From: Clostridia bacterium
Lineage (GTDB): Bacteria > Bacillota > Clostridia > RGIG7378
Direction: 5' to 3'
Length of the DNA stretch: 64,000 bases
NCBI GenBank assembly: GCA_017559445.1
Contig: JAFYSJ010000002.1
Location: 36,087-100,086, forward strand
Part shown: piece after piece, positions 1,479 to 42,432 of the stretch
Layout of the letters: the number at the start of each line of letters is the position of its first letter
How positions within the stretch are numbered: position 1 is the first letter of the stretch
Made by a program: the position numbers and the translations under genes
Notes under the pieces: model-generated
The model's input: the letters and a program-made list of their open reading frames with translations, nothing else
Databases searched by the model: none
Told to the model about the DNA's origin: nothing

Positions 1479-1520
1479 CTCTAATTTTATATTCATCTGA
1501 TCTTAGGATCGTGGAGACAT

Positions 1521-1655
1521 TCACTAGCGCAGCGGCCTACTAGCGCTACAACGCGGCTCACTAGCGAATGCAATGAGCGGTTACTAGCAACGCAGTTGCG
1601 GCTCACTAGGCATAGCCGGTTCACTAACGAGCTTTGCTCGTGGTTCACTGACAAG
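1521..1655. repeat. Tandem array of CTAGTGAGCCGC-type mini-hairpin repeats (locus A, CACTAGCG orientation)
   Basis: Units cactagcgcagcggcc / tactagcgctacaacgcggctcactagcgaatgcaatgagcgg... The same family recurs at 15771, 18205, 20401, 42251 and 63537. This copy lies between the stop of the M20 gene and its terminator. Confidence 0.7.
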
Positions 1656-4567: not shown

Positions 4568-5494
4568 TTACTCTGCATCAACGATTGGGTTACCATTCTC
4601 GTCGAAGCTGATCTCAGCTGCTGTGTTGATACCGGAGAGAGCCTTGGAAGCCTCATACCACTCACCGTACAAACCAGCTGCATATGCCTTAGCAAGAACT
4701 GCGTTGATCTTGTTTGTCAAATCATCGTTACCCTTACCGATAAGAACAACGTTGTTCTCCTCTTCGGAAGATACCTCAAACTCGAAACCAGACAATGCAA
4801 CCTTGTCATTGTTTGCCATAATGGACTCTGCGTTACCCTTAGCAACTGCAACACCATCTACGATACCGGAGAGAAGTGCCTGAACTGCTGTGTTGATATC
4901 GCCGTAAACCTCAATCTTAGCACCTGTAAGCTGATCCTTGCAAAGGTTCTCCTGAAGGGAAGCGCCCTGAGCACCAATCTTCAAGCCTGCGAAATCATCT
5001 GCCTTGGAGTACTTGTTAGCCTTGTCAGCCTTAACGATGATAACCTGCTCTGTCTCGTTCTCACCAGCGTAGTAGTAATCAGAAAGGTTACAATTCTGCT
5101 TACGCTCATCTGTTACGGAGAAACCGGAAATAGAGCAATCTACAGTACCTGTCTGTACAGCAACCTGACATGCACCGAAGTCAAGTGTTACGATCTCGAG
5201 CTTCATGTTGAGCTCCTTAGCAATGTACATAGCCAAGAGAACGTCGAAACCAACAACCTTGTTCTTATCTGTCTCCATGAACTCCATTGGAGCAAAGTCA
5301 GGAGAAATAGCTACCTTAAGAACTTCTGTAGCACCATCATTCTTGTATGCCTCTTCGAATGCCCAGTACTTAGCAATCTGAGCCTCGTTATATGCCTTCT
5401 CGTTAGCGTCCAATGTATCAACATCACCGCCGCAACCAGCGAATACTGCCATGGACATAACCAATGCCAAAATCAAAGCTAAAATCTTCTTCAT
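4568..5494 (-). CDS. Amino-acid ABC transporter substrate-binding lipoprotein (family 3 SBP)
   Basis: Signal peptide with lipobox VFAGCGG. SBP_bac_3-like body. First gene of the minus-strand operon 5494 to 1645. Confidence 0.8.
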   Translation of the reverse strand: MKKILALILALVMSMAVFAGCGGDVDTLDANEKAYNEAQIAKYWAFEEAYKNDGATEVLKVAISPDFAPMEFMETDKNKVVGFDVLLAMYIAKELNMKLEIVTLDFGACQVAVQTGTVDCSISGFSVTDERKQNCNLSDYYYAGENETEQVIIVKADKANKYSKADDFAGLKIGAQGASLQENLCKDQLTGAKIEVYGDINTAVQALLSGIVDGVAVAKGNAESIMANNDKVALSGFEFEVSSEEENNVVLIGKGNDDLTNKINAVLAKAYAAGLYGEWYEASKALSGINTAAEISFDENGNPIVDAE

Positions 5495-5689
5495 ATGTAA
5501 AAACCTCGTATAAAAATAATGTACTCAAAAAGTGACTTTCACATAATACACCCGAAAAATAGATATTGCAATAGGCTTTTTGAATTTTTATTCAATTTTA
5601 TTTGTATTTCTTTTGTCTGTGCGTATTTTATGCAGTTATAATGCATATTTATTGAATTATATACAAAAATCCTGTGCATTAATTATAAT

Positions 5690-5810
5690 ATCTTACATAA
5701 TAGTGTTTTGTGTATGTCCATTACTTTGGAACGACCCAAAGTAATCAAAGGTCGCCCGCTACTTCCGAAGCGCGGGAGGCACGGGTCGCAATGCTATGCT
5801 TTGCATGCAC
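5690..5810. repeat. Structured element of about 115 bp, copy 1. An inverted near-identical copy lies at 20510-20625.
   Basis: The reverse complement of 5703-5778 matches 20540-20610 exactly over about 76 bp, and similarity extends to about 115 bp. The element contains two hairpins: CCCGCG-cttcggaagta-GCGGG and ATTACTTTGG-gtcgtt-CCAAAGTAAT. Confidence 0.6.
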
Positions 5811-5840
5811 AAAAAAGAAGCAGATCCTAAGACCTGCTTC
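5811..5840 (-). terminator. Rho-independent terminator immediately 3' of tRNA-Leu
   Basis: Hairpin gaagcaggtcttaggatctgcttc plus TTTTTT on the minus strand. Confidence 0.6.
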
Positions 5841-5841
5841 T

Positions 5842-5929
5842 TGGTGCAGCCGGGGGGACTTGAACCCCCATTAGCGTTACACTAACTAGTACCTGAAACT
5901 AGCGCGTCTGCCAATTCCGCCACGGCTGC
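5842..5929 (-). tRNA. tRNA-Leu (anticodon CAG), 88 nt, ending in an encoded CCA
   Basis: Minus-strand sequence GCAGCCGTGGCGGAATTGGCAGACGCGCTAGTTTCAGGTACTAGTTAGTGTAACGCTAATGGGGGTTCAAGTCCCCCCGGCTGCACCA. It has a 7-bp acceptor stem, anticodon stem CTAGT/ACTAG with loop UUCAGGU (anticodon CAG), a long variable arm typical of Leu, and T-arm GGGGG-TTCAAGT-CCCCC. Confidence 0.9.
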
Positions 5930-15652: not shown

Positions 15653-15770
15653 GTTGTGGGTTTTGCGACAAATGTGCCGCTCTCCTTTTCCAATTGTTCC
15701 ATGTCTGTACATAGATGGTGTTATTATATGATAGATAAAGACATCACGCAAGAAATAGTACGATGTCTTT

Positions 15771-16195
15771 AGTGAACCGCTACGCTAGTGACCGCTCATT
15801 GCATTCGCTAGTAGGCCACGAGCAAAGCTCGTTAGTGAGCCGCAAGCAAAGCTTGCTAGTATACGCTCGTTTCACTCGCTAGTGAGCCGCTACGCTAGTA
15901 ACCGCAACTACGTTGCTAGTGAACCGCAAGCGGGGCTTGCTAGTATACGCTCGTTTCACTCGCTAGTGAGCCGCTACGCTAGTGGCCGCGCTGTCGCGCT
16001 AGTGAACCGCAAGCGGGGCTTGCTAGTATACGCTCGTTTCACTCGCTAGTGAACCGCTGCGCTAGTAGGCCGCAACTACGTTGCTAGTGAGCCGCTACGC
16101 TAGTAGGCCGCGCTGTCGCGCTAGTGAACCGCAAGCGGGGCTTGCTAGTATACGCTCGTTTCACTCGCTAGTGAGCCGCTACGCTAGTGAGCACA
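15771..16195. repeat. Largest tandem array (about 425 bp) of CTAGTGAGCCGC-type mini-hairpin repeats (locus B), with a higher-order period of about 90 bp
   Basis: At least 20 units of CTAGT(G/A)(A/G/T)(G/A)CCGC separated by 4-13-nt GC-rich spacers, many of which are palindromic (GCAAGCGGGGCTTGC, GAGCAAAGCTCG). The block ctagtgaaccgcaagcggggcttgctagtatacgctcgtttcactcgctagtgagccgctacgctagtNgccgcgctgtcgcg repeats three times. Confidence 0.8.
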
Positions 16196-18176: not shown

Positions 18177-18204
18177 CGTCTATTCCTTTCACCATTAAGA
18201 CAAT

Positions 18205-18372
18205 TCACTAGCGAATGCAATGAGCGGCCACTAGCACAGCGGCTCACTAGCGAATGCAATGAGCGGCCACTAGCGCAGCGGTTCACTAGCAACGTAGTTG
18301 CGGCCTACTAACGAGCTTTGCTCGTGGCTCACTAGCGAATGCAATGAGCGGCCACTAGCGCAGCGGCTCACT
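18205..18372. repeat. CTAGTGAGCCGC-type mini-hairpin repeat array (locus C)
   Basis: cactagcgaatgcaatgagcggccactagcacagcggctcactagcgaatgcaatgagcgg..., lying between the rsmI stop and the next gene. Confidence 0.7.
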
Positions 18373-19219
18373 TCTCACTATCTAAATAAATCTGATAAGC
18401 ATCTCTTGCCGGGATTCCCAATGCCTTTGCTGCTTCCTTGGATGCATCCTTAAGTCTCATGCCAGCGTCGATTCTTTCCTGAATAGCTGCCACAATACCC
18501 TCGTTGGTGAGCTCCGCAGTTTCTTCCACTTCCTCGCCACCTGCCACGACAATTACGAACTCACCCTTTGGTGGAACTTCCTCGTACATTGCCAAGGCCT
18601 CGCCAATGGTCACGCGAACAATCTCCTCGTGGAGCTTAGTGAGCTCTCTACAAAGCGCAATCTTGCGCTCCGCTCCCCATGTTTCCTGCATGTCCTCCAA
18701 AGTGTTAACCAACTTGTGTGGTGCCTCGTAGAAAATCATGGTACGTGTCTCATTTGCCAACTGAGCCATGCGAGCACGCCTATTCTTTTTGTTAAGGGGC
18801 AAAAATCCCTCAAAAGTAAATCTATTTGTGTCCATTCCAGACAAAACAAGGGCCTGAATGCATGCAGCAGGACCTGGTGCCATGGTTACCACATAACCTG
18901 CCTCAGTAGCTGCCTGAATAAGAACCTGACCTGGGTCGCTGATTCCTGGTGTACCTGCATCGGAAACAAGTGCTATGTTTTGTCCCTGCTCCAAAAGAGA
19001 AAGCATATAGTCAACGCGAGCCTCCTCGTTATGTCTGTAGTAGCTAATGAGGTTATTCTTAATACCCAAGTGGTTAAGTAGCTGCAATGTTCTACGTGTG
19101 TCTTCGGCTGCAATTACATCTGCCTCTGCCAAAGTTTCCACAGCTCTAGGGGTGATGTCGCCCAAATTGCCAATGGGGGTGGCAACAACTGTTAATACGC
19201 CCAATGTATTGTTATCCAT
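18368..19219 (-). CDS. rsmI: 16S rRNA (cytidine1402-2'-O)-methyltransferase RsmI (YabC)
   Basis: N-terminal tetrapyrrole-methylase-like motif LTVVATPIGNLGDITPRAVETL. 283 aa. Confidence 0.9.
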   Translation of the reverse strand: MDNNTLGVLTVVATPIGNLGDITPRAVETLAEADVIAAEDTRRTLQLLNHLGIKNNLISYYRHNEEARVDYMLSLLEQGQNIALVSDAGTPGISDPGQVLIQAATEAGYVVTMAPGPAACIQALVLSGMDTNRFTFEGFLPLNKKNRRARMAQLANETRTMIFYEAPHKLVNTLEDMQETWGAERKIALCRELTKLHEEIVRVTIGEALAMYEEVPPKGEFVIVVAGGEEVEETAELTNEGIVAAIQERIDAGMRLKDASKEAAKALGIPARDAYQIYLDSEK

Positions 19220-20196: not shown

Positions 20197-20400
20197 AATC
20201 ATGTACCTCCAAATATTCTATGTGGTCTATAAATAATACTCCAAAAAAATGACTTTGTCCATAAGTGGACATAGTTTCGCAAATCGAAACTGGTGTTTAA
20301 TATTGAATAAAAGTCTTTGTGTTACTATGCAAAAGACCCTTGGAACACAGCGACCAGCACTAATCACTCAACACTAAACACTAGATGCAAAGTGAAGAGT

Positions 20401-20495
20401 GATCCGCTACGCTAGTAGGCCGCAAGCAAAGCTTGCTAGTAACCGCAACTGCGTTGCTAGTGAAACGAACGCGTTGCGTTCTAGTGAAATGACCA
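20401..20495. repeat. CTAGTGAGCCGC-type mini-hairpin repeat array (locus D)
   Basis: gctagtaggccgcaagcaaagcttgctagtaaccgcaactgcgttgctagtgaaacgaacgcgttgcgttctagtgaaatgacc. Confidence 0.65.
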
Positions 20496-20509
20496 CTGCA
20501 ACATAGGTA

Positions 20510-20625
20510 CCAGCACTAAACACTGCAAAGCAAAGCTTTGCGAACCGTGCCTCCCGCGCTTCGGAAGTAGCGGGCGACCTTTGATTACTTTGGGTCGTTC
20601 CAAAGTAATGGACATACACCAAACA
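20510..20625. repeat. Structured element of about 115 bp, copy 2, inverted relative to the copy at 5690-5810
   Basis: gcaaagcaaagctttgcgaaccgtgcctcccgcgcttcggaagtagcgggcgacctttgattactttgggtcgttccaaagtaatggacatacacc matches the reverse complement of 5690-5810. Confidence 0.6.
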
Positions 20626-20654
20626 CTAAATAAGAAGCTCGCTCCGCGTTCAAT

Positions 20655-21467
20655 TTACTTCTTAATAACCTTAACCTCGTCTGCCTTGAACACAATCTGG
20701 TCGCTCTCAGACTTTCCGTCAATGCGCACCTTAACTTGTTCTCTCAAAAGATTTACCTCAGTAACAACGCCTCTGCCACAGTCTGTCTCAACCATAGAAC
20801 CTGCCTTAGGCACTCTAGCAAGCAAATCCTCATATGCCTCAGACTCGTACTTGAGACAGCACATAAGTCTGCCACATGTACCGGAGATCTTAGTAGGGTT
20901 CAAAGAAAGATCCTGTTCCTTGGCCATCTTAATGGATACGGGATGGAAGTCGTCCATGTAAGAATGGCAGCATACTGGTCTACCACAGATTCCAAGTCCA
21001 CCCATCATCTTAGCCTCATCTCTAACGCCTACCTGACGAAGCTCGATTCTTGTCTTAAAGATTGTTGCCAAATCCTTAACCAAATCTCTAAAATCTACTC
21101 TGCCCTCTGCAGTGAAATAGAAGAGAATCTTGCTGCTATCCAATGTATATCCAACGTCAATGAGTTTCATCTCAATGCCGCGAGAAATAATCTTTTCCTT
21201 ACAAATTCTGAAAGCTTCCTTTTCCTTAATACGGTTAGCCTCGTAGTTATCCAAGTCCTCCTGAGTTGCCACACGGAGTACTGTCTTAAGGGGCTGTGTG
21301 ATACGGCTATCGTCCATCTCTGTGGGGCCGAACGTAATCTTGCCACACTCAAGACCTCTGGAAGTTTCTACCACGCAGGAATCGTTAACCTTGAGAGTCA
21401 ACTCACCTGGATCAAAGTAATATGCCTTGCCTGAATTTCTAAATCTAACTCCAACTACTGTTGTCAA
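20655..21467 (-). CDS. ricT: PSP1-domain protein RicT (YaaT, stage 0 sporulation/RNA maturation complex)
   Basis: Conserved Cys cluster GICGRPVCCHSYM...CGRLMCCLKYE. 270 aa. Confidence 0.8.
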   Translation of the reverse strand: MTTVVGVRFRNSGKAYYFDPGELTLKVNDSCVVETSRGLECGKITFGPTEMDDSRITQPLKTVLRVATQEDLDNYEANRIKEKEAFRICKEKIISRGIEMKLIDVGYTLDSSKILFYFTAEGRVDFRDLVKDLATIFKTRIELRQVGVRDEAKMMGGLGICGRPVCCHSYMDDFHPVSIKMAKEQDLSLNPTKISGTCGRLMCCLKYESEAYEDLLARVPKAGSMVETDCGRGVVTEVNLLREQVKVRIDGKSESDQIVFKADEVKVIKK

Positions 21468-32450: not shown

Positions 32451-34829
32451 TTATCTAAATGAAAGTTCACGATAGATAACGTATACGAAGCCCCATACCT
32501 GCTGCAAGATACTGAAGAACAGTACGCCGATGAAGATAATAATTACGGCTGCAAGCAAGATTACGAGAGTTACCAACATTGTCTTAGCAAATGAGTACTG
32601 GTGAGTAATCATTGTACCAACAACAATCAGCAAACCTGCCCAAACCAATCCGAAGATTGCGAGGAATGAGTGGATAGCACCTTCCTCAAGTGTTACACAG
32701 TAGCTGAGCAATACATTTGGAATGTAGAGCACTGGGATTGGCAACAATGCGTAGCAGGATGCCATAAAGATCTGCTTCATGTTTCCTTCGCCGTCCAACA
32801 AAGTTGTTGTACACCAGTTAGCAATTACCCACAAAGCCAAAGGTGCAAGTACTGCCAAGAACTCAATCCAAATATTAATCTTAGTTACATCGTTCTTGTT
32901 AAATGTGAATGATGTAAGCTGCTTCTGAAGAATCAAGGAGAAGATTGTAAGGGCAACGATGCCAATTGCAATCCAGATGTTTCCTCTGTTTTCCATCTTA
33001 AGTTCATAGAATCCCTTAACTGGGTTAAGCATATTCCTAAATGCAAATTTGATCTTCTCGCTTAAGCACTGTGGATCCTTAGCGGGCTTACCCTCTGGAC
33101 CATACTTCTTAAGAATCTGCTTCTTGCGAATTGCCTTGAATACTGCAATAGCAATTACAAGTACGAGAGCACATGTCATGAATGGACCGAATGCGTCATC
33201 AATCAACTCACTTCTTCTCTGCTTCCAAGCATTGGAGTAGTTTGTCTTCTTGTCGCCCAGCTTGAAGTACTTCATAGCTGTGTCGTAGTTCTTGTTCATG
33301 TACTCAACTCGGCCTACACCGATGTAAGCAAGCTGGAAGTTTGCGTTGTGGTAATCAATAATCTCCTGCCACAACTTTGCTGCATCATCCCACTTACCTT
33401 CATCCTGAAGTGCAAGAGCCTGGAGGATGTATCCGCCGTACTCAGTAATCTGGAACAAGGATACATAACCAGTTGTCTGGTCAAGTACCATCATGTCTGT
33501 ACCAAGGTACTCAATGGATACTGGCTTCTTGAATGTACCAGCTCTGATACCCAAGCCGCCGAAAATATAGAGGAGGTTACCATCCTGGTCGTATGTGAAA
33601 ACACGTCCTCTTGTGGAGTCCAATACGGAGTATACACCGTTGTTGGAACCATTGTTCAAAAGTGCTACGTCAACAATTCTGGATACACCAGCCTGCTCTG
33701 TTGCGTAGTAGTCAACCTGAACGTCTCCACCAGGAGCGAACCATGATGTTCTATAAAGAACGTCATTACCCAATGGGTTAAGTCTCTTTACAGAAGCATA
33801 ACGGTCGTCGTCTGTACCTGATGTAATATGTGCCTGGAACTCATACTGAGATACAGAAGAAGATGTTACGTAGATGAAGGACTTATCATCAATAGCAACG
33901 GAACTGTACTCAGAAGGAGTGAATGTAGCCTGTCTAGCTCTCTGCTCTCTGGTCATGAACCATCTCTTAATAACCTGGAAAATGGAAACACGAACCTTAG
34001 CTCTGCCGAAGAATGCTGTGAAGTTACCATCAGCATCAAACTTAAGCAAACCAGAAGTTACGTTCTTAGCAGCTACATAAAGTCTACCACCATCATCAAC
34101 TACCAAGGAGATTGGATAGTAAACATAGCCTGCTTCGAAGAGGTCGGACTCTGGAGCACCCAAAAGTCTTAAAACATCGTACTCCTTAGTCTCTTCGTTT
34201 AATCTGAAATGTACGATTCTAGAGTTGTTTGTATCACAAACATAGAATGTACCATCATTATCTACGAACATACCCTGAGGCTCACAGAACTGATACTGCT
34301 TACCCTCAAATGTATAGCCTGTAATTTCTCCAACAAGTGTCCAAGCATCTGGGTTCTCAGTCTTGTAAGAGAAAATCAAAAGACGACCCTTAGGAGTTGT
34401 ATCTACAACATCCTCTGTTGAGTCTGTTGTAACATCTGTTGTTACGTCTGTTGTTGCATCAGTTGTAACGTCTGTTGTTACATCACCTGTCTCATCAACA
34501 GTAGCAACACCCTCATCTGTTGTTACATCAGTTGTTGTATCACCTGTTACAGGAGCAATCCACTTAGAATCCAAGTAGTAGATCAAGTTGTTTGCTTCGT
34601 CACAAATAATAGCAACTGGATAAACAACAGGAGAATCTACGCCTTCAATCTTAGATACATCGATAACGGATGATACCTCGTATGCTGGTGGAGCGTAGAG
34701 AACATTCTTTGTAGAACTATATGTATAGTTAGAGAATGCTGCTGTTTCAGCAAAAGCTGGATAACAGCTAGATACCAACATAACAACAAGGAGAATTAAT
34801 GTTGAAATTTTAATTAATGCTTTCTTCAT
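32451..34829 (-). CDS. Fusion protein: signal peptide, a (T-D-V-T)n linker, an NHL-like beta-propeller, and a C-terminal Yip1-like multi-TM domain
   Basis: 792 aa, starting at MKKALIKIST with RBS aggagg. NHL-like blades (YVCDTNNSRIVHF, LYVAAKNVTSGLLKFDADGN). The C-terminal roughly 230 aa has 5 or more TM segments, Yip1-like. Low-complexity TTDVTTDATTDVTTDVTTD stretch. Confidence 0.5.
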   Translation of the reverse strand: MKKALIKISTLILLVVMLVSSCYPAFAETAAFSNYTYSSTKNVLYAPPAYEVSSVIDVSKIEGVDSPVVYPVAIICDEANNLIYYLDSKWIAPVTGDTTTDVTTDEGVATVDETGDVTTDVTTDATTDVTTDVTTDSTEDVVDTTPKGRLLIFSYKTENPDAWTLVGEITGYTFEGKQYQFCEPQGMFVDNDGTFYVCDTNNSRIVHFRLNEETKEYDVLRLLGAPESDLFEAGYVYYPISLVVDDGGRLYVAAKNVTSGLLKFDADGNFTAFFGRAKVRVSIFQVIKRWFMTREQRARQATFTPSEYSSVAIDDKSFIYVTSSSVSQYEFQAHITSGTDDDRYASVKRLNPLGNDVLYRTSWFAPGGDVQVDYYATEQAGVSRIVDVALLNNGSNNGVYSVLDSTRGRVFTYDQDGNLLYIFGGLGIRAGTFKKPVSIEYLGTDMMVLDQTTGYVSLFQITEYGGYILQALALQDEGKWDDAAKLWQEIIDYHNANFQLAYIGVGRVEYMNKNYDTAMKYFKLGDKKTNYSNAWKQRRSELIDDAFGPFMTCALVLVIAIAVFKAIRKKQILKKYGPEGKPAKDPQCLSEKIKFAFRNMLNPVKGFYELKMENRGNIWIAIGIVALTIFSLILQKQLTSFTFNKNDVTKINIWIEFLAVLAPLALWVIANWCTTTLLDGEGNMKQIFMASCYALLPIPVLYIPNVLLSYCVTLEEGAIHSFLAIFGLVWAGLLIVVGTMITHQYSFAKTMLVTLVILLAAVIIIFIGVLFFSILQQVWGFVYVIYRELSFR

Positions 34830-34839
34830 TTTGTCCTCC

Positions 34840-35751
34840 TTACTTAATACCTGAAGATGCCATTGTCTCAACAACGTTGGACTCTGTCAGCATGAACATT
34901 ACGATAGGAACGATCATGATGAATACGGCTACAGCAGAACCTGCACCCTGTCTAGCTACACCACCAGCCAAAATCTGGTTAAGAGCATAAGGCAAAGTCT
35001 TGAACTGCTCACTGAATACGTATACACCACCAGTTGTGTTCCAGAGAGACTGGAAGGAGAAGATAATCAATGTGAGCCAAGCTGGCTTAACGTTGGGCAT
35101 CGCAATGCTCCAGTAAACTCTGAACTCGTTTGCACCGTCGATACGAGCGGATTCGCAAAGAGCTGTTGGAAGTCCTTCCATGAACTGCTTCATAAGGAAG
35201 AGACCCATTGTGCTGGCAAATGCTGGAACTACAAGAGCAAGGTATGTATCCAACCATCCCAAACCAGAAAGAATCAAGTAGTTAGGAATGTATGTAACAG
35301 TTGCTGGGAACATCAAAGCCCAAATAACAGCTGTGAACAAGAAGTTCTTGCCAGGGAACTCATGCTTAGCCAATGCGAAAGCTGCCATTGAAGCCAAGAA
35401 CAAGTGTCCAATTGTACCGCATGCTGTAATGAATACGGTATTGAAAATGTATCTTGAGAATGGAACCCAAGACTCAGACATGATAATGAACAAGTCACTA
35501 AAGTTGTCCAATGTAGGGTTACGAGCAAAGAATCTCGGAGGGAATGCGAACAGCTCATCCATAGGCTTAACGGAGTTACTGATTGCATATACGAAGGGCA
35601 AAAGCATGAAGATACCTACGCCGATAAGCATTGCCATAATTGCTACGTCGCCGCCAACGGATCTGTTAGGCTTTCTTCTGCGGATAAACTTGCCTCCGAT
35701 CTTTGTTACTTTTTCTTCTTTAATTTTAGGTTCTTTAGCTTTTCTTGCCAT
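34840..35751 (-). CDS. Carbohydrate ABC transporter permease (MalG-like)
   Basis: EAA-like motif ESARIDGANEFRVYWSIAMP. 303 aa. Confidence 0.8.
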   Translation of the reverse strand: MARKAKEPKIKEEKVTKIGGKFIRRRKPNRSVGGDVAIMAMLIGVGIFMLLPFVYAISNSVKPMDELFAFPPRFFARNPTLDNFSDLFIIMSESWVPFSRYIFNTVFITACGTIGHLFLASMAAFALAKHEFPGKNFLFTAVIWALMFPATVTYIPNYLILSGLGWLDTYLALVVPAFASTMGLFLMKQFMEGLPTALCESARIDGANEFRVYWSIAMPNVKPAWLTLIIFSFQSLWNTTGGVYVFSEQFKTLPYALNQILAGGVARQGAGSAVAVFIMIVPIVMFMLTESNVVETMASSGIK

Positions 35752-42010: not shown

Positions 42011-42250
42011 AAACGTCTCCCTACAAATCAGCTTGATATGTTTTAACGCAGAATAGTCCTGTAAAAAACCAATGTCAATTCAAAGAAAGACCATTTTCTA
42101 TTTCAATCCATTTTCGTTTCCATTTATTTCCAGTTATTATTCTGGCTGTCGACAAATTGAGACATTCACTTTTCCACGATTTCGAAGACAAAATAAAAAG
42201 ATCGAGCCCGGTTTAATCCCAAACTCAATCCTTGATTGTTATTTTGTTTT

Positions 42251-42432
42251 AGCAAGCTTTGCTTGCGGCCACTAGCCGAAGGCGATTCACTAGCGAATGC
42301 AATGAGCGGATACTAGCAAGCTCTGCTTGCGGCTCACTAGGACCGAAGGTCCGGCCTACTAGGCGTAGCCGGCTCACTAGCGCAGCGGCCTACTAGGCGT
42401 AGCCGGTTCACTAGCGCGAAGCGCGACCACTA
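42251..42432. repeat. CTAGTGAGCCGC-type mini-hairpin repeat array (locus E), abutting the pncB stop
   Basis: agcaagctttgcttgcggccactagccgaaggcgattcactagcgaatgcaatgagcggatactagcaagctctgcttgcggctcactagg... Confidence 0.7.

Follow-up and report, generated by a model that had tools for sequence, protein, structure and literature searches.

What is the structured element of about 115 bp that occurs twice, in inverted orientation, in the window, that is, the whole 64,000-nt stretch of Clostridia bacterium DNA analysed here? The initial annotation, made from the sequence alone, had offered three candidate identities: a small non-coding RNA gene in two copies, a MITE-like mobile element, or a recombination site. 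To our knowledge, hardly any of the small dispersed repeats have been charted in Gram-positive gut anaerobes.

We observed that a repeat search of the window returned a single long inverted repeat, in which 5701-5805 and 20524-20628 were 96% complementary over 105 nt. Pairwise alignment of the two copies gave 101 identities in 105 positions, with the mismatches at positions 10, 14, 21 and 97 in the orientation of the initial annotation. The longest uninterrupted identity was 75 nt (5710-5784 against 20545-20619), in agreement with the 76 bp or so that had been claimed. The hairpin cores of 22 nt and 26 nt each occurred exactly twice in the window when up to three mismatches were allowed, while none was expected from 100 shuffles. 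When the entire window was scanned with a covariance model, filters off, copy 1 scored 59.9 bits and copy 2 scored 57.3 bits; everything else stayed at or below 14 bits, and there was no third copy in the 64 kb. The inverted pair was thus real.

Read 5' to 3' (on the minus strand for copy 1), the module consists of hairpin 1, a junction, hairpin 2, a pseudoknot with hairpin 3, and a tail. All three hairpins that had been described were found; the pseudoknot (CGAC:GUCG in the window) had not been part of that description. The parts are as follows.

5701-5805, minus strand: copy 1 of the 105-nt module (inverted repeat, alignment and covariance-model score)
5788-5804, minus strand: hairpin 1 of copy 1, GCAAAGC-AUA-GCAUUGC, with one A.A mismatch
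5755-5783, minus strand: invariant centre of copy 1, made up of the junction CGUGCCU and hairpin 2 (CCCGC-GCUUCGGAAGUA-GCGGG)
5751-5754, minus strand: 5' strand of the pseudoknot of copy 1, CGAC, pairing with GUCG at 5732-5735
5720-5745, minus strand: hairpin 3 of copy 1, AUUACUUUGG-GUCGUU-CCAAAGUAAU, its loop containing the 3' strand of the pseudoknot
20524-20628, plus strand: copy 2 of the 105-nt module (inverted repeat, alignment and covariance-model score)
20525-20541, plus strand: hairpin 1 of copy 2, GCAAAGC-AAA-GCUUUGC, perfect
20546-20574, plus strand: invariant centre of copy 2, on the same basis as in copy 1
20575-20578, plus strand: 5' strand of the pseudoknot of copy 2, CGAC, pairing with GUCG at 20594-20597
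20584-20609, plus strand: hairpin 3 of copy 2 (hairpin core search, folding and covariation)

The surroundings of both copies were as the annotation had them. Copy 1 lies between the terminator of a tRNA-Leu(CAG) gene (5842-5929, minus strand) and the promoter-like site of an SBP_bac_3/ABC operon that starts at 5494 on the minus strand. A promoter-like site TATACA-18-TATAAT adjoins copy 1 on the complement of the folding strand. Copy 2 has a repeat array on one side and, on the other, the 3' end of ricT (PSP1), whose stop codon at 20655 (minus strand) is just 3' of the copy, and is oriented antisense to ricT and fdx. The adjoining features are listed here.

5815-5842, minus strand: terminator hairpin of tRNA-Leu, directly 5' of copy 1, AAGAAGCAGGUCUUAGGAUCUGCUUCUU followed by U6 (terminator scan)
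20395-20500, plus strand: CTAGT-phased repeat array beside copy 2, belonging to the same lineage-specific insert of ~390 nt (about 20267-20660)
20629-20660, plus strand: lineage-specific filler from copy 2 to conserved ricT (alignment with the sister species)

The filler gives ricT the codons AAG AAG and its stop (20655-20657), and can be folded into a hairpin, AAGAAG...CTTCTT. Copy 2, but not copy 1, is flanked by an AAACACT repeat, which is part of another repeat module. The 14.7 kb that separate the copies hold housekeeping genes (metG, tatD, ksgA, spoIIR, engB, rsmI), and no integrase, transposase, reverse transcriptase or recombinase was present among the 20 window proteins checked.

We also searched for the element in other genomes. 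An exact 20-mer of the central hairpin, which proved to be a rare variant, was used to scan genome contigs and returned a Faecalibacterium MAG (locus L005) and one chance match. At L005, 32 nt (CCGTGCCTCCCGCGCTTCGGAAGTAGCGGGCG) were identical to the window, and the hairpins on both sides differed in sequence. The centre CGTGCCT-CCCGC-GCYTCGRAAGTA-GCGGG was then seen unchanged in more than 100 distinct human-gut loci, on Faecalibacterium chromosomes and phage contigs, and the hairpins around it differ between loci yet still pair. Scans of viral contigs for the centre gave 7 loci and then 29-45, and a metagenome scan gave more than 120 stretches among the matches listed. The hairpin-3 junction of the window type had no match in the viral contigs, and BLAST against GenBank phages gave only 3 matches, all to unannotated human-faecal phage contigs. 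The check for further copies was answered in the affirmative: the family was present in Faecalibacterium, in phages and in a sister species of the window genome.

Nearly all instances come from human-gut assemblies of ~57% GC, and the window has 43% GC. The assignment to Faecalibacterium is based on the L005 MAG and on a neighbouring MnmG named Faecalibacterium. No named genus has a RicT more than 65% identical to the window protein, whose identity to the RicT of rumen Clostridia MAGs is 89%; the matches in Faecalibacterium therefore mean that the family spans distant Clostridia. It occurs in the chromosomes of at least two distant lineages of Clostridia and in Faecalibacterium phages. What looked like a two-copy oddity of a rumen MAG is therefore a large family in Faecalibacterium and its phages. 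Faecalibacterium is among the most abundant genera of the human gut, and F. prausnitzii can be cultured. Our literature searches found no published description of Faecalibacterium intergenic repeats, and the family is one of undescribed, folded intergenic repeats.

The Faecalibacterium element is longer (~230 nt) and modular. Its 5' part consists of a small GC hairpin, AAATCGG, HP0, CTTYGGGRTT and hairpin 1, after which come TCGTGCCT, hairpin 2 and the pseudoknot with hairpin 3. HP0 is a long hairpin with A- and T-tracts, terminator-like in both directions, and the tRNA-Leu terminator at copy 1 takes the equivalent position. We also looked for a helix that would close the module by pairing its two flanks, and found none that was conserved. 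The neighbouring genes are unrelated to each other (capsid, mnmE/mnmG/parB, MFS, SBP, sbcD, rqcH, ricT, tRNA-Leu); those that recur are phage capsid and scaffold genes and, in the host, mnmE, mnmG, parB, sbcD, MFS and SBP. Copies often sit at gene 3' ends, 0-100 nt from a stop codon. Some contigs carry the element twice, among them L054, L011, L166 and IMGVR_UViG_3300030365_000067 (L012/L028). Many copies, including many of the metagenome loci, are within ~100 nt of a contig end, which suggests that the repeat breaks short-read assemblies of Faecalibacterium.

The fold was evaluated on one alignment of 70 distinct sequences, with 500 shuffles and slid 3' partners as controls. Standard pairs made up 98.9% of the cells, compared with 91.6% in the shuffles and 44-53% in the slid controls. 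Eleven pairs changed on both sides (158 cells), and the observed values of pairing and covariation were reached by none of the 500 shuffles. The fold comprises three hairpins, a pseudoknot and an invariant centre of ~30 nt. At the position of hairpin 1, each lineage has a different hairpin sequence (the covarying variants include ACTAGGGGC, ATCAAGGGC, GAAAGGGGC and CCAAGGGGC), and five of its pairs vary in both partners; UA/AU swaps are seen in hairpin 3. The folding energies of the two window copies were modestly unusual (z -1.95 and -3.06).

In the pseudoknot, the loop of hairpin 3 pairs with the 3-4 bases that follow hairpin 2, giving 3-4 bp; in the 70-sequence set, 2-3 bases take part. Columns 67-69 and 90-92 were paired in 100% of the 70 sequences, and all three pairs changed on both sides (UA46/CG19/UG4, GC59/AU9/GU2 and CG68/AU2). 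The combinations seen were UG:CA (46 sequences), CG:CG and CA:UG, along with the wobble forms UG:CG and UG:UG. The junction CGUGCCU and hairpin 2 were invariant in the 70-sequence set, partly by construction of the search patterns. When viral contigs were scanned with the stem left free, no compensated variants of hairpin 2 appeared; the sister-species copy has the stem CCGGC/GCCGG, a compensated change of C-G to G-C. The fold is unusually well supported, and the 30-nt centre is identical across genomes of very different base composition.

As to which strand folds, the helices contained 29 G.U cells and 1 A.C cell when read in the orientation of the initial annotation, and 10 against 1 when the pair 52-59 (Y52:G59) was left out; read on the opposite strand, the two counts would change places. 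All six 'recombinant' haplotypes of the pseudoknot were wobble-compatible on this strand, hairpin 3 of the sister-species copy contains two wobbles on it, and the upstream hairpin region was more stable on it in 42 of 61 cases. The excess of G.U over A.C marks this as the folding strand, and with about 10 independent wobble sites as the base of the comparison, we consider it probable that this is the strand under selection. The UUCG-type loops and the pseudoknot hint at RNA, over single-stranded DNA, as the molecule that would fold. Relative to the gene that it adjoins, the strand that folds runs antisense in four settings (the phage capsid gene, rqcH of L005, ricT at copy 2 and rsmI in the sister species), and in the sense direction at copy 1 and near MFS, PAP2-like and SBP genes at several sites in Faecalibacterium; overall, by a crude gene call, the orientation relative to neighbours is mixed.

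We compared both window loci with those of relatives. At the tRNA-Leu locus, copy 1 was absent from three strains (L179, L180 and L181; SBP 97% and 92% identical). Their sequences match the window up to the end of tRNA-Leu, resume the match at TATGTAAGATATTATAATTAA, and between these points have only a different terminator, AAGGGGGGAGAAAATTCCCCCTT followed by T7, where the window and L001 have AAGAAGCAGGTCTTAGGATCTGCTTCTT, T6 and then the 105-nt module. The terminator at 5815-5842 (minus strand) is wholly unlike that of these strains with neighbour proteins of 92-97% identity, and it appears to have arrived together with copy 1.

At the ricT locus, the insert was absent from the sister species (L173-L178; RicT 89% identical), in which the ricT-fdx spacer is 81 nt, compared with 452 nt in the window. 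The gene order MurT-GatD-ricT-fdx-trmN6-rsmI-TMEM164 is the same in both, and the homology stops at ...GTTATTAAG. RicT has 270 aa in the window (20655-21467, minus strand), 289 aa in the sister species and 288-292 aa in the listed homologues; the window protein has lost its last 19 residues, and its end codons AAG AAG TAA come from the repeat insert. By these alignments, both window copies are lineage-specific.

The spacer between rsmI and TMEM164 in the sister species holds a diverged copy of its own (45 bits), and the stop of rsmI falls inside the loop of hairpin 3 of that copy (L173, 6859-6861). The same position in the window has a CTAGT array, whose first unit provides the rsmI stop: the TGA of this TP_methylase gene falls within the first CTAGTGAGCCGC unit (18368-18380, minus strand). 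The 3' end of rsmI has thus been rebuilt repeatedly by repeats, once by the window array and once by the sister-species copy. The element itself remodels gene ends, having truncated RicT, supplied stop codons and replaced terminators.

A similar picture was seen in the phages, where ~20 of 50 occurrences with the same capsid gene 3' end carry the element. The 30 phage contigs (225 kb) that share this 3' end and have other spacers gave no match to the covariance model. Both here and at the tRNA-Leu site, the entire spacer or terminator was swapped and not interrupted.

With these results we returned to the identity of the element. Rfam 15 at gathering thresholds (cmscan) identified tRNA-Leu only in the whole window and nothing at eight Faecalibacterium and phage loci. 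A permissive search (E<=10) with both window copies, the full Faecalibacterium element and the sister-species copy gave chance matches only, with E of 0.065-10, far under threshold. No known RNA family therefore accounts for the element. The proposal of a small RNA gene in two copies found no positive support either. No promoter-like site was seen upstream of either copy on the folding strand, the promoter-like site on the complementary strand of copy 1 has no counterpart at copy 2, and neither copy ends in a terminator. Hairpin 3 is followed by no U-tract in either copy, so that the module is not itself an intrinsic terminator; a terminator hairpin adjoins it instead (5815-5842 in the window, HP0 in Faecalibacterium).

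Of the three candidates, the MITE-like element came closest. The family is dispersed, and like the MITEs (Correia, RUP, ERIC) it is small, non-coding, multi-copy and insertion-polymorphic, and may overlap gene ends and supply stops. However, it does not have the terminal inverted repeats and target-site duplications that define MITEs. The ends TGCAAAGC... and ...AAACACTA are not complementary, and a comparison of filled with empty sites at both window loci gave no target-site duplication at either copy, the flanking sequence having been replaced. The two window junctions showed no conserved target tetranucleotide, the first and third hairpins are not related to each other as subterminal hairpins would be, and no transposase-like ORF cluster, reverse transcriptase, recombinase or tnpA/tnpB recurred within 3 kb of more than 150 copies.

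A few other candidates were tried and dropped. A small protein (MSITLERPKVIKGRPLLPKRGRHGSQ... ORF, 5708-5830 on the plus strand and 20481-20615 on the minus strand, on the complementary strand of the copies) had no RBS/Shine-Dalgarno and its C-termini differed; it was judged non-coding also because the family varies by compensatory pairs and not by codons. A sigma-54 promoter and an SD/anti-SD pairing were judged by eye and dropped for misfit of spacing or consensus or for want of a match. A T-arm or tRNA-like fold, attC, c-di-GMP-II and an HDV-like fold were likewise dropped by eye, for misfit or for having no Rfam or ARAGORN match. A composite transposon or an inversion of the segment was ruled out by synteny and gene content.

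On balance we lean, with confidence a little above even, towards a dispersed, non-coding, non-autonomous repeat that is constrained by its structure and is of the BIME/BOX type. Members of the family come and go, as cassettes, in the short spacers that follow genes, beside or carrying a terminator-type hairpin, and selection appears to keep the fold of one strand: a variable hairpin 1, CGUGCCU-CCCGC-GCYUCGRAAGUA-GCGGG, and hairpin 3 with its pseudoknot loop. New copies would come about by copy-and-insert or by cassette replacement, acting in trans on the folded single strand, and the two window copies (96% identical) would be recent products of this process. Such recognition of the folded single strand would explain why the fold is kept in either orientation, and a fold so kept argues for selection on the propagation or an autonomous function of the element and not on the mRNA of its neighbours. 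The whole-spacer swaps, the mosaic left boundaries and the lack of terminal inverted repeats and target-site duplications would fit recombinational cassette exchange as well as they fit transposition. Against this reading stand the lack of any recurring transposase, reverse transcriptase or recombinase near the copies, and also a centre of 30 nt that is invariant at both 43% and ~57% GC, the UUCG-type loops and the pseudoknot, all of which one would sooner meet in a functional RNA than in selfish DNA. The element is a candidate for a new trans-mobilised element or a new RNA class.

The first alternative, which we consider unlikely but which deserves to be weighed, is that the element is a cis-acting RNA module of transcript 3' ends (an exonuclease block, a processing site or a terminator back-up), useful to host or phage and spread by recombination between spacers, not by transposition. 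The location at gene 3' ends, often 0-100 nt from a stop and beside a terminator-type hairpin, is what would be looked for in such a module, and the fold is RNA-like in its G.U pairs, UUCG loops and pseudoknot. In the phages, four different spacers can follow the major capsid gene, which is highly expressed; the element is one of them, and each of the four has strong GC hairpins. However, in the phages, at rqcH of L005, at ricT and at the sister-species rsmI, the strand that folds runs antisense to the gene whose end it adjoins, and the transcript that is certain at these sites is the complement, with A.C mismatches. The orientation relative to neighbours is mixed, and close relatives manage without the element. 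It is mainly because the fold is kept in either orientation that we rank the dispersed mobile repeat above a 3'-UTR module.

The second alternative is at best as probable as the 3'-end module and perhaps less so. Here the element would represent a structured RNA of a new class, such as a self-cleaving ribozyme or a binder of a protein, a ligand or a host factor, carried on a mobile cassette; the invariant 30 nt and the pseudoknot would be its catalytic or binding centre, common to gut and rumen Clostridia and their phages. Invariant nucleotides in a junction and internal loop between covarying helices, together with a pseudoknot, would be in keeping with this, as would the multi-copy, phage-associated occurrence with no fixed gene partner and the lack of a match to known families. 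The strand-specific covariation also keeps a structured-RNA function alive. Bacterial self-cleaving ribozymes are frequently found near phage genes, in roles that are unknown (review, PMC6765202). Against this stand the lack of a promoter common to the copies, the frequent placing of the folding strand downstream of a terminator or antisense to an operon, and the modest folding z-scores of the window copies. The self-cleaving ribozymes (twister, hatchet, pistol, hammerhead and HDV-like ones including HDV-F-prausnitzii) are similar in size, with three helices and a pseudoknot, and share the invariant junction bases, the phage association and the absence of a fixed gene context. Carriage on a mobile cassette would resemble the scattered occurrence of hammerhead and twister motifs among bacteria and phages. 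However, no Rfam model of these classes matched the present element, even at E<=10.

A site for site-specific recombination, for a 14.7-kb inversion or for phage attachment, now appears very improbable. The copies are inverted, copy 1 is beside a tRNA gene and the same centre is found in phages and hosts, but the sister species, which does not have copy 2, shows the same order and orientation of the genes around that site. No integrase, transposase or other recombinase is encoded among the intervening housekeeping genes, the phage element follows the capsid gene, sometimes twice per contig, and is not beside an integrase, and the selection on a single-strand fold with a pseudoknot also speaks against such a site. 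A chance or purely local duplication, which the count of only two copies in 64 kb might have suggested, can be set aside as next to impossible, as the identical centre, with compensatory changes around it, is present in other genera and in phages.

We also compared the element with known systems. The closest analogues appear to be REP/BIME, the pneumococcal BOX and the palindromic elements derived from IS200/IS605, and its behaviour would be nearest to that of REP/BIME and BOX. Like REP/BIME, the element is non-coding, intergenic, often at gene 3' ends or near terminators, and built of hairpins; it folds strand-specifically, is combined with further repeat modules (here the CTAGT arrays and HP0) into mosaics that occupy extragenic spacers, and has no terminal inverted repeats or target-site duplications, any mobilising enzyme being encoded elsewhere. 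REP/BIME are mobilised by the RAYT Y1 transposases. No RAYT was present among the 20 window proteins scanned, the annotated neighbours or the surroundings of family copies. A REP unit is a single imperfect palindrome of 20-40 nt with a GTAG-type head, whereas the present unit is 105 nt long, or about 230 nt in its Faecalibacterium form, combines a pseudoknot and a 30-nt invariant centre with three hairpins that differ from one another, and is also found in phages.

BOX elements of Streptococcus pneumoniae are modular boxA-boxB-boxC repeats. With these the element shares the form of a modular, highly structured intergenic repeat of Firmicutes, about 100-200 nt long and with no transposase of its own, which can sit in the transcripts of neighbouring genes and whose mode of spread is unknown; this likeness, compared by description, is one of architecture only. 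We know of no report of a pseudoknot or a cross-genus invariant core in BOX. The covarying pseudoknot, the cross-genus invariant centre and the presence in phages set the element apart from both REP/BIME and BOX.

The PATEs and TnpB omega/reRNA scaffolds of IS200/IS605 also have no terminal inverted repeats or target-site duplications and carry subterminal hairpins on one active strand, and in both cases a pseudoknotted segment of ~100 nt ends at the element boundary with variable flanks beyond. In the present element, however, the left and right hairpins are unrelated, and tnpA/tnpB and a target tetranucleotide were missing in the searches described above. A preference for the lagging template has been described for IS608. 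The folding strand here is mostly antisense to co-oriented genes, which would be the opposite of that preference.

The window contains other repeats, of which the CTAGT arrays are the most prominent. Five arrays of 5 to 20 units each were seen.

1520-1650, minus strand: CTAGT array
15770-16195, plus strand: CTAGT array
18200-18375, minus strand: CTAGT array
20395-20500, plus strand: CTAGT array beside copy 2 (listed above)
42250-42430, minus strand: CTAGT array

The unit is 16-24 nt long and starts with CTAGT(G/A)..CCGC, followed by a tiny GC hairpin such as GCAAGC-GGGG-GCTTGC or GCAAC-TAC-GTTGC. Hairpin 1 of copy 2 is similar to the GCAAGC-AAA-GCTTGC units of the adjoining arrays. The arrays lie in spacers beside metG, rsmI, ricT and the NAPRTase gene, and are absent from the sister-species locus L173. 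A 13-mer of the units, TAGCGCAGCGGCT, is also found at the tip of HP0 in Faecalibacterium elements, which suggests that the 105-nt module and the arrays may be parts of a single mosaic system of repeats.

A second structured repeat (...GCAACGGCGACGACCGCCGCCAGTGGCGG...GGGAGGAGCTGTTGGGGC...GGGAGCCGCAACCC) was seen in the loop of the spacer hairpin of some Faecalibacterium phages (L187, L194, L196, L198 and L200), ~150 nt after the capsid stop, and also upstream of the element in L007-L011 and L114. Its pieces in L010 and L011 had no Rfam match at gathering thresholds. Hybrids of the element with this second family occur in L114 and in phage form C.

Finally, the window has repeats within genes. 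The region 54.6-61.4 kb (minus strand) and 5456-5507 contain paralogous genes with near-identical 5' ends (repeat families D1, D3 and D9), which encode a signal- or lipoprotein-like N-terminus, ATGAAGAAGATTTTAGC...; the SBP gene beside copy 1 has the same start. At 34409-34550, 12-nt tandem repeats of the GTTGTTACxTCT type (family D2) lie inside a large ORF (32451-34874, minus strand).
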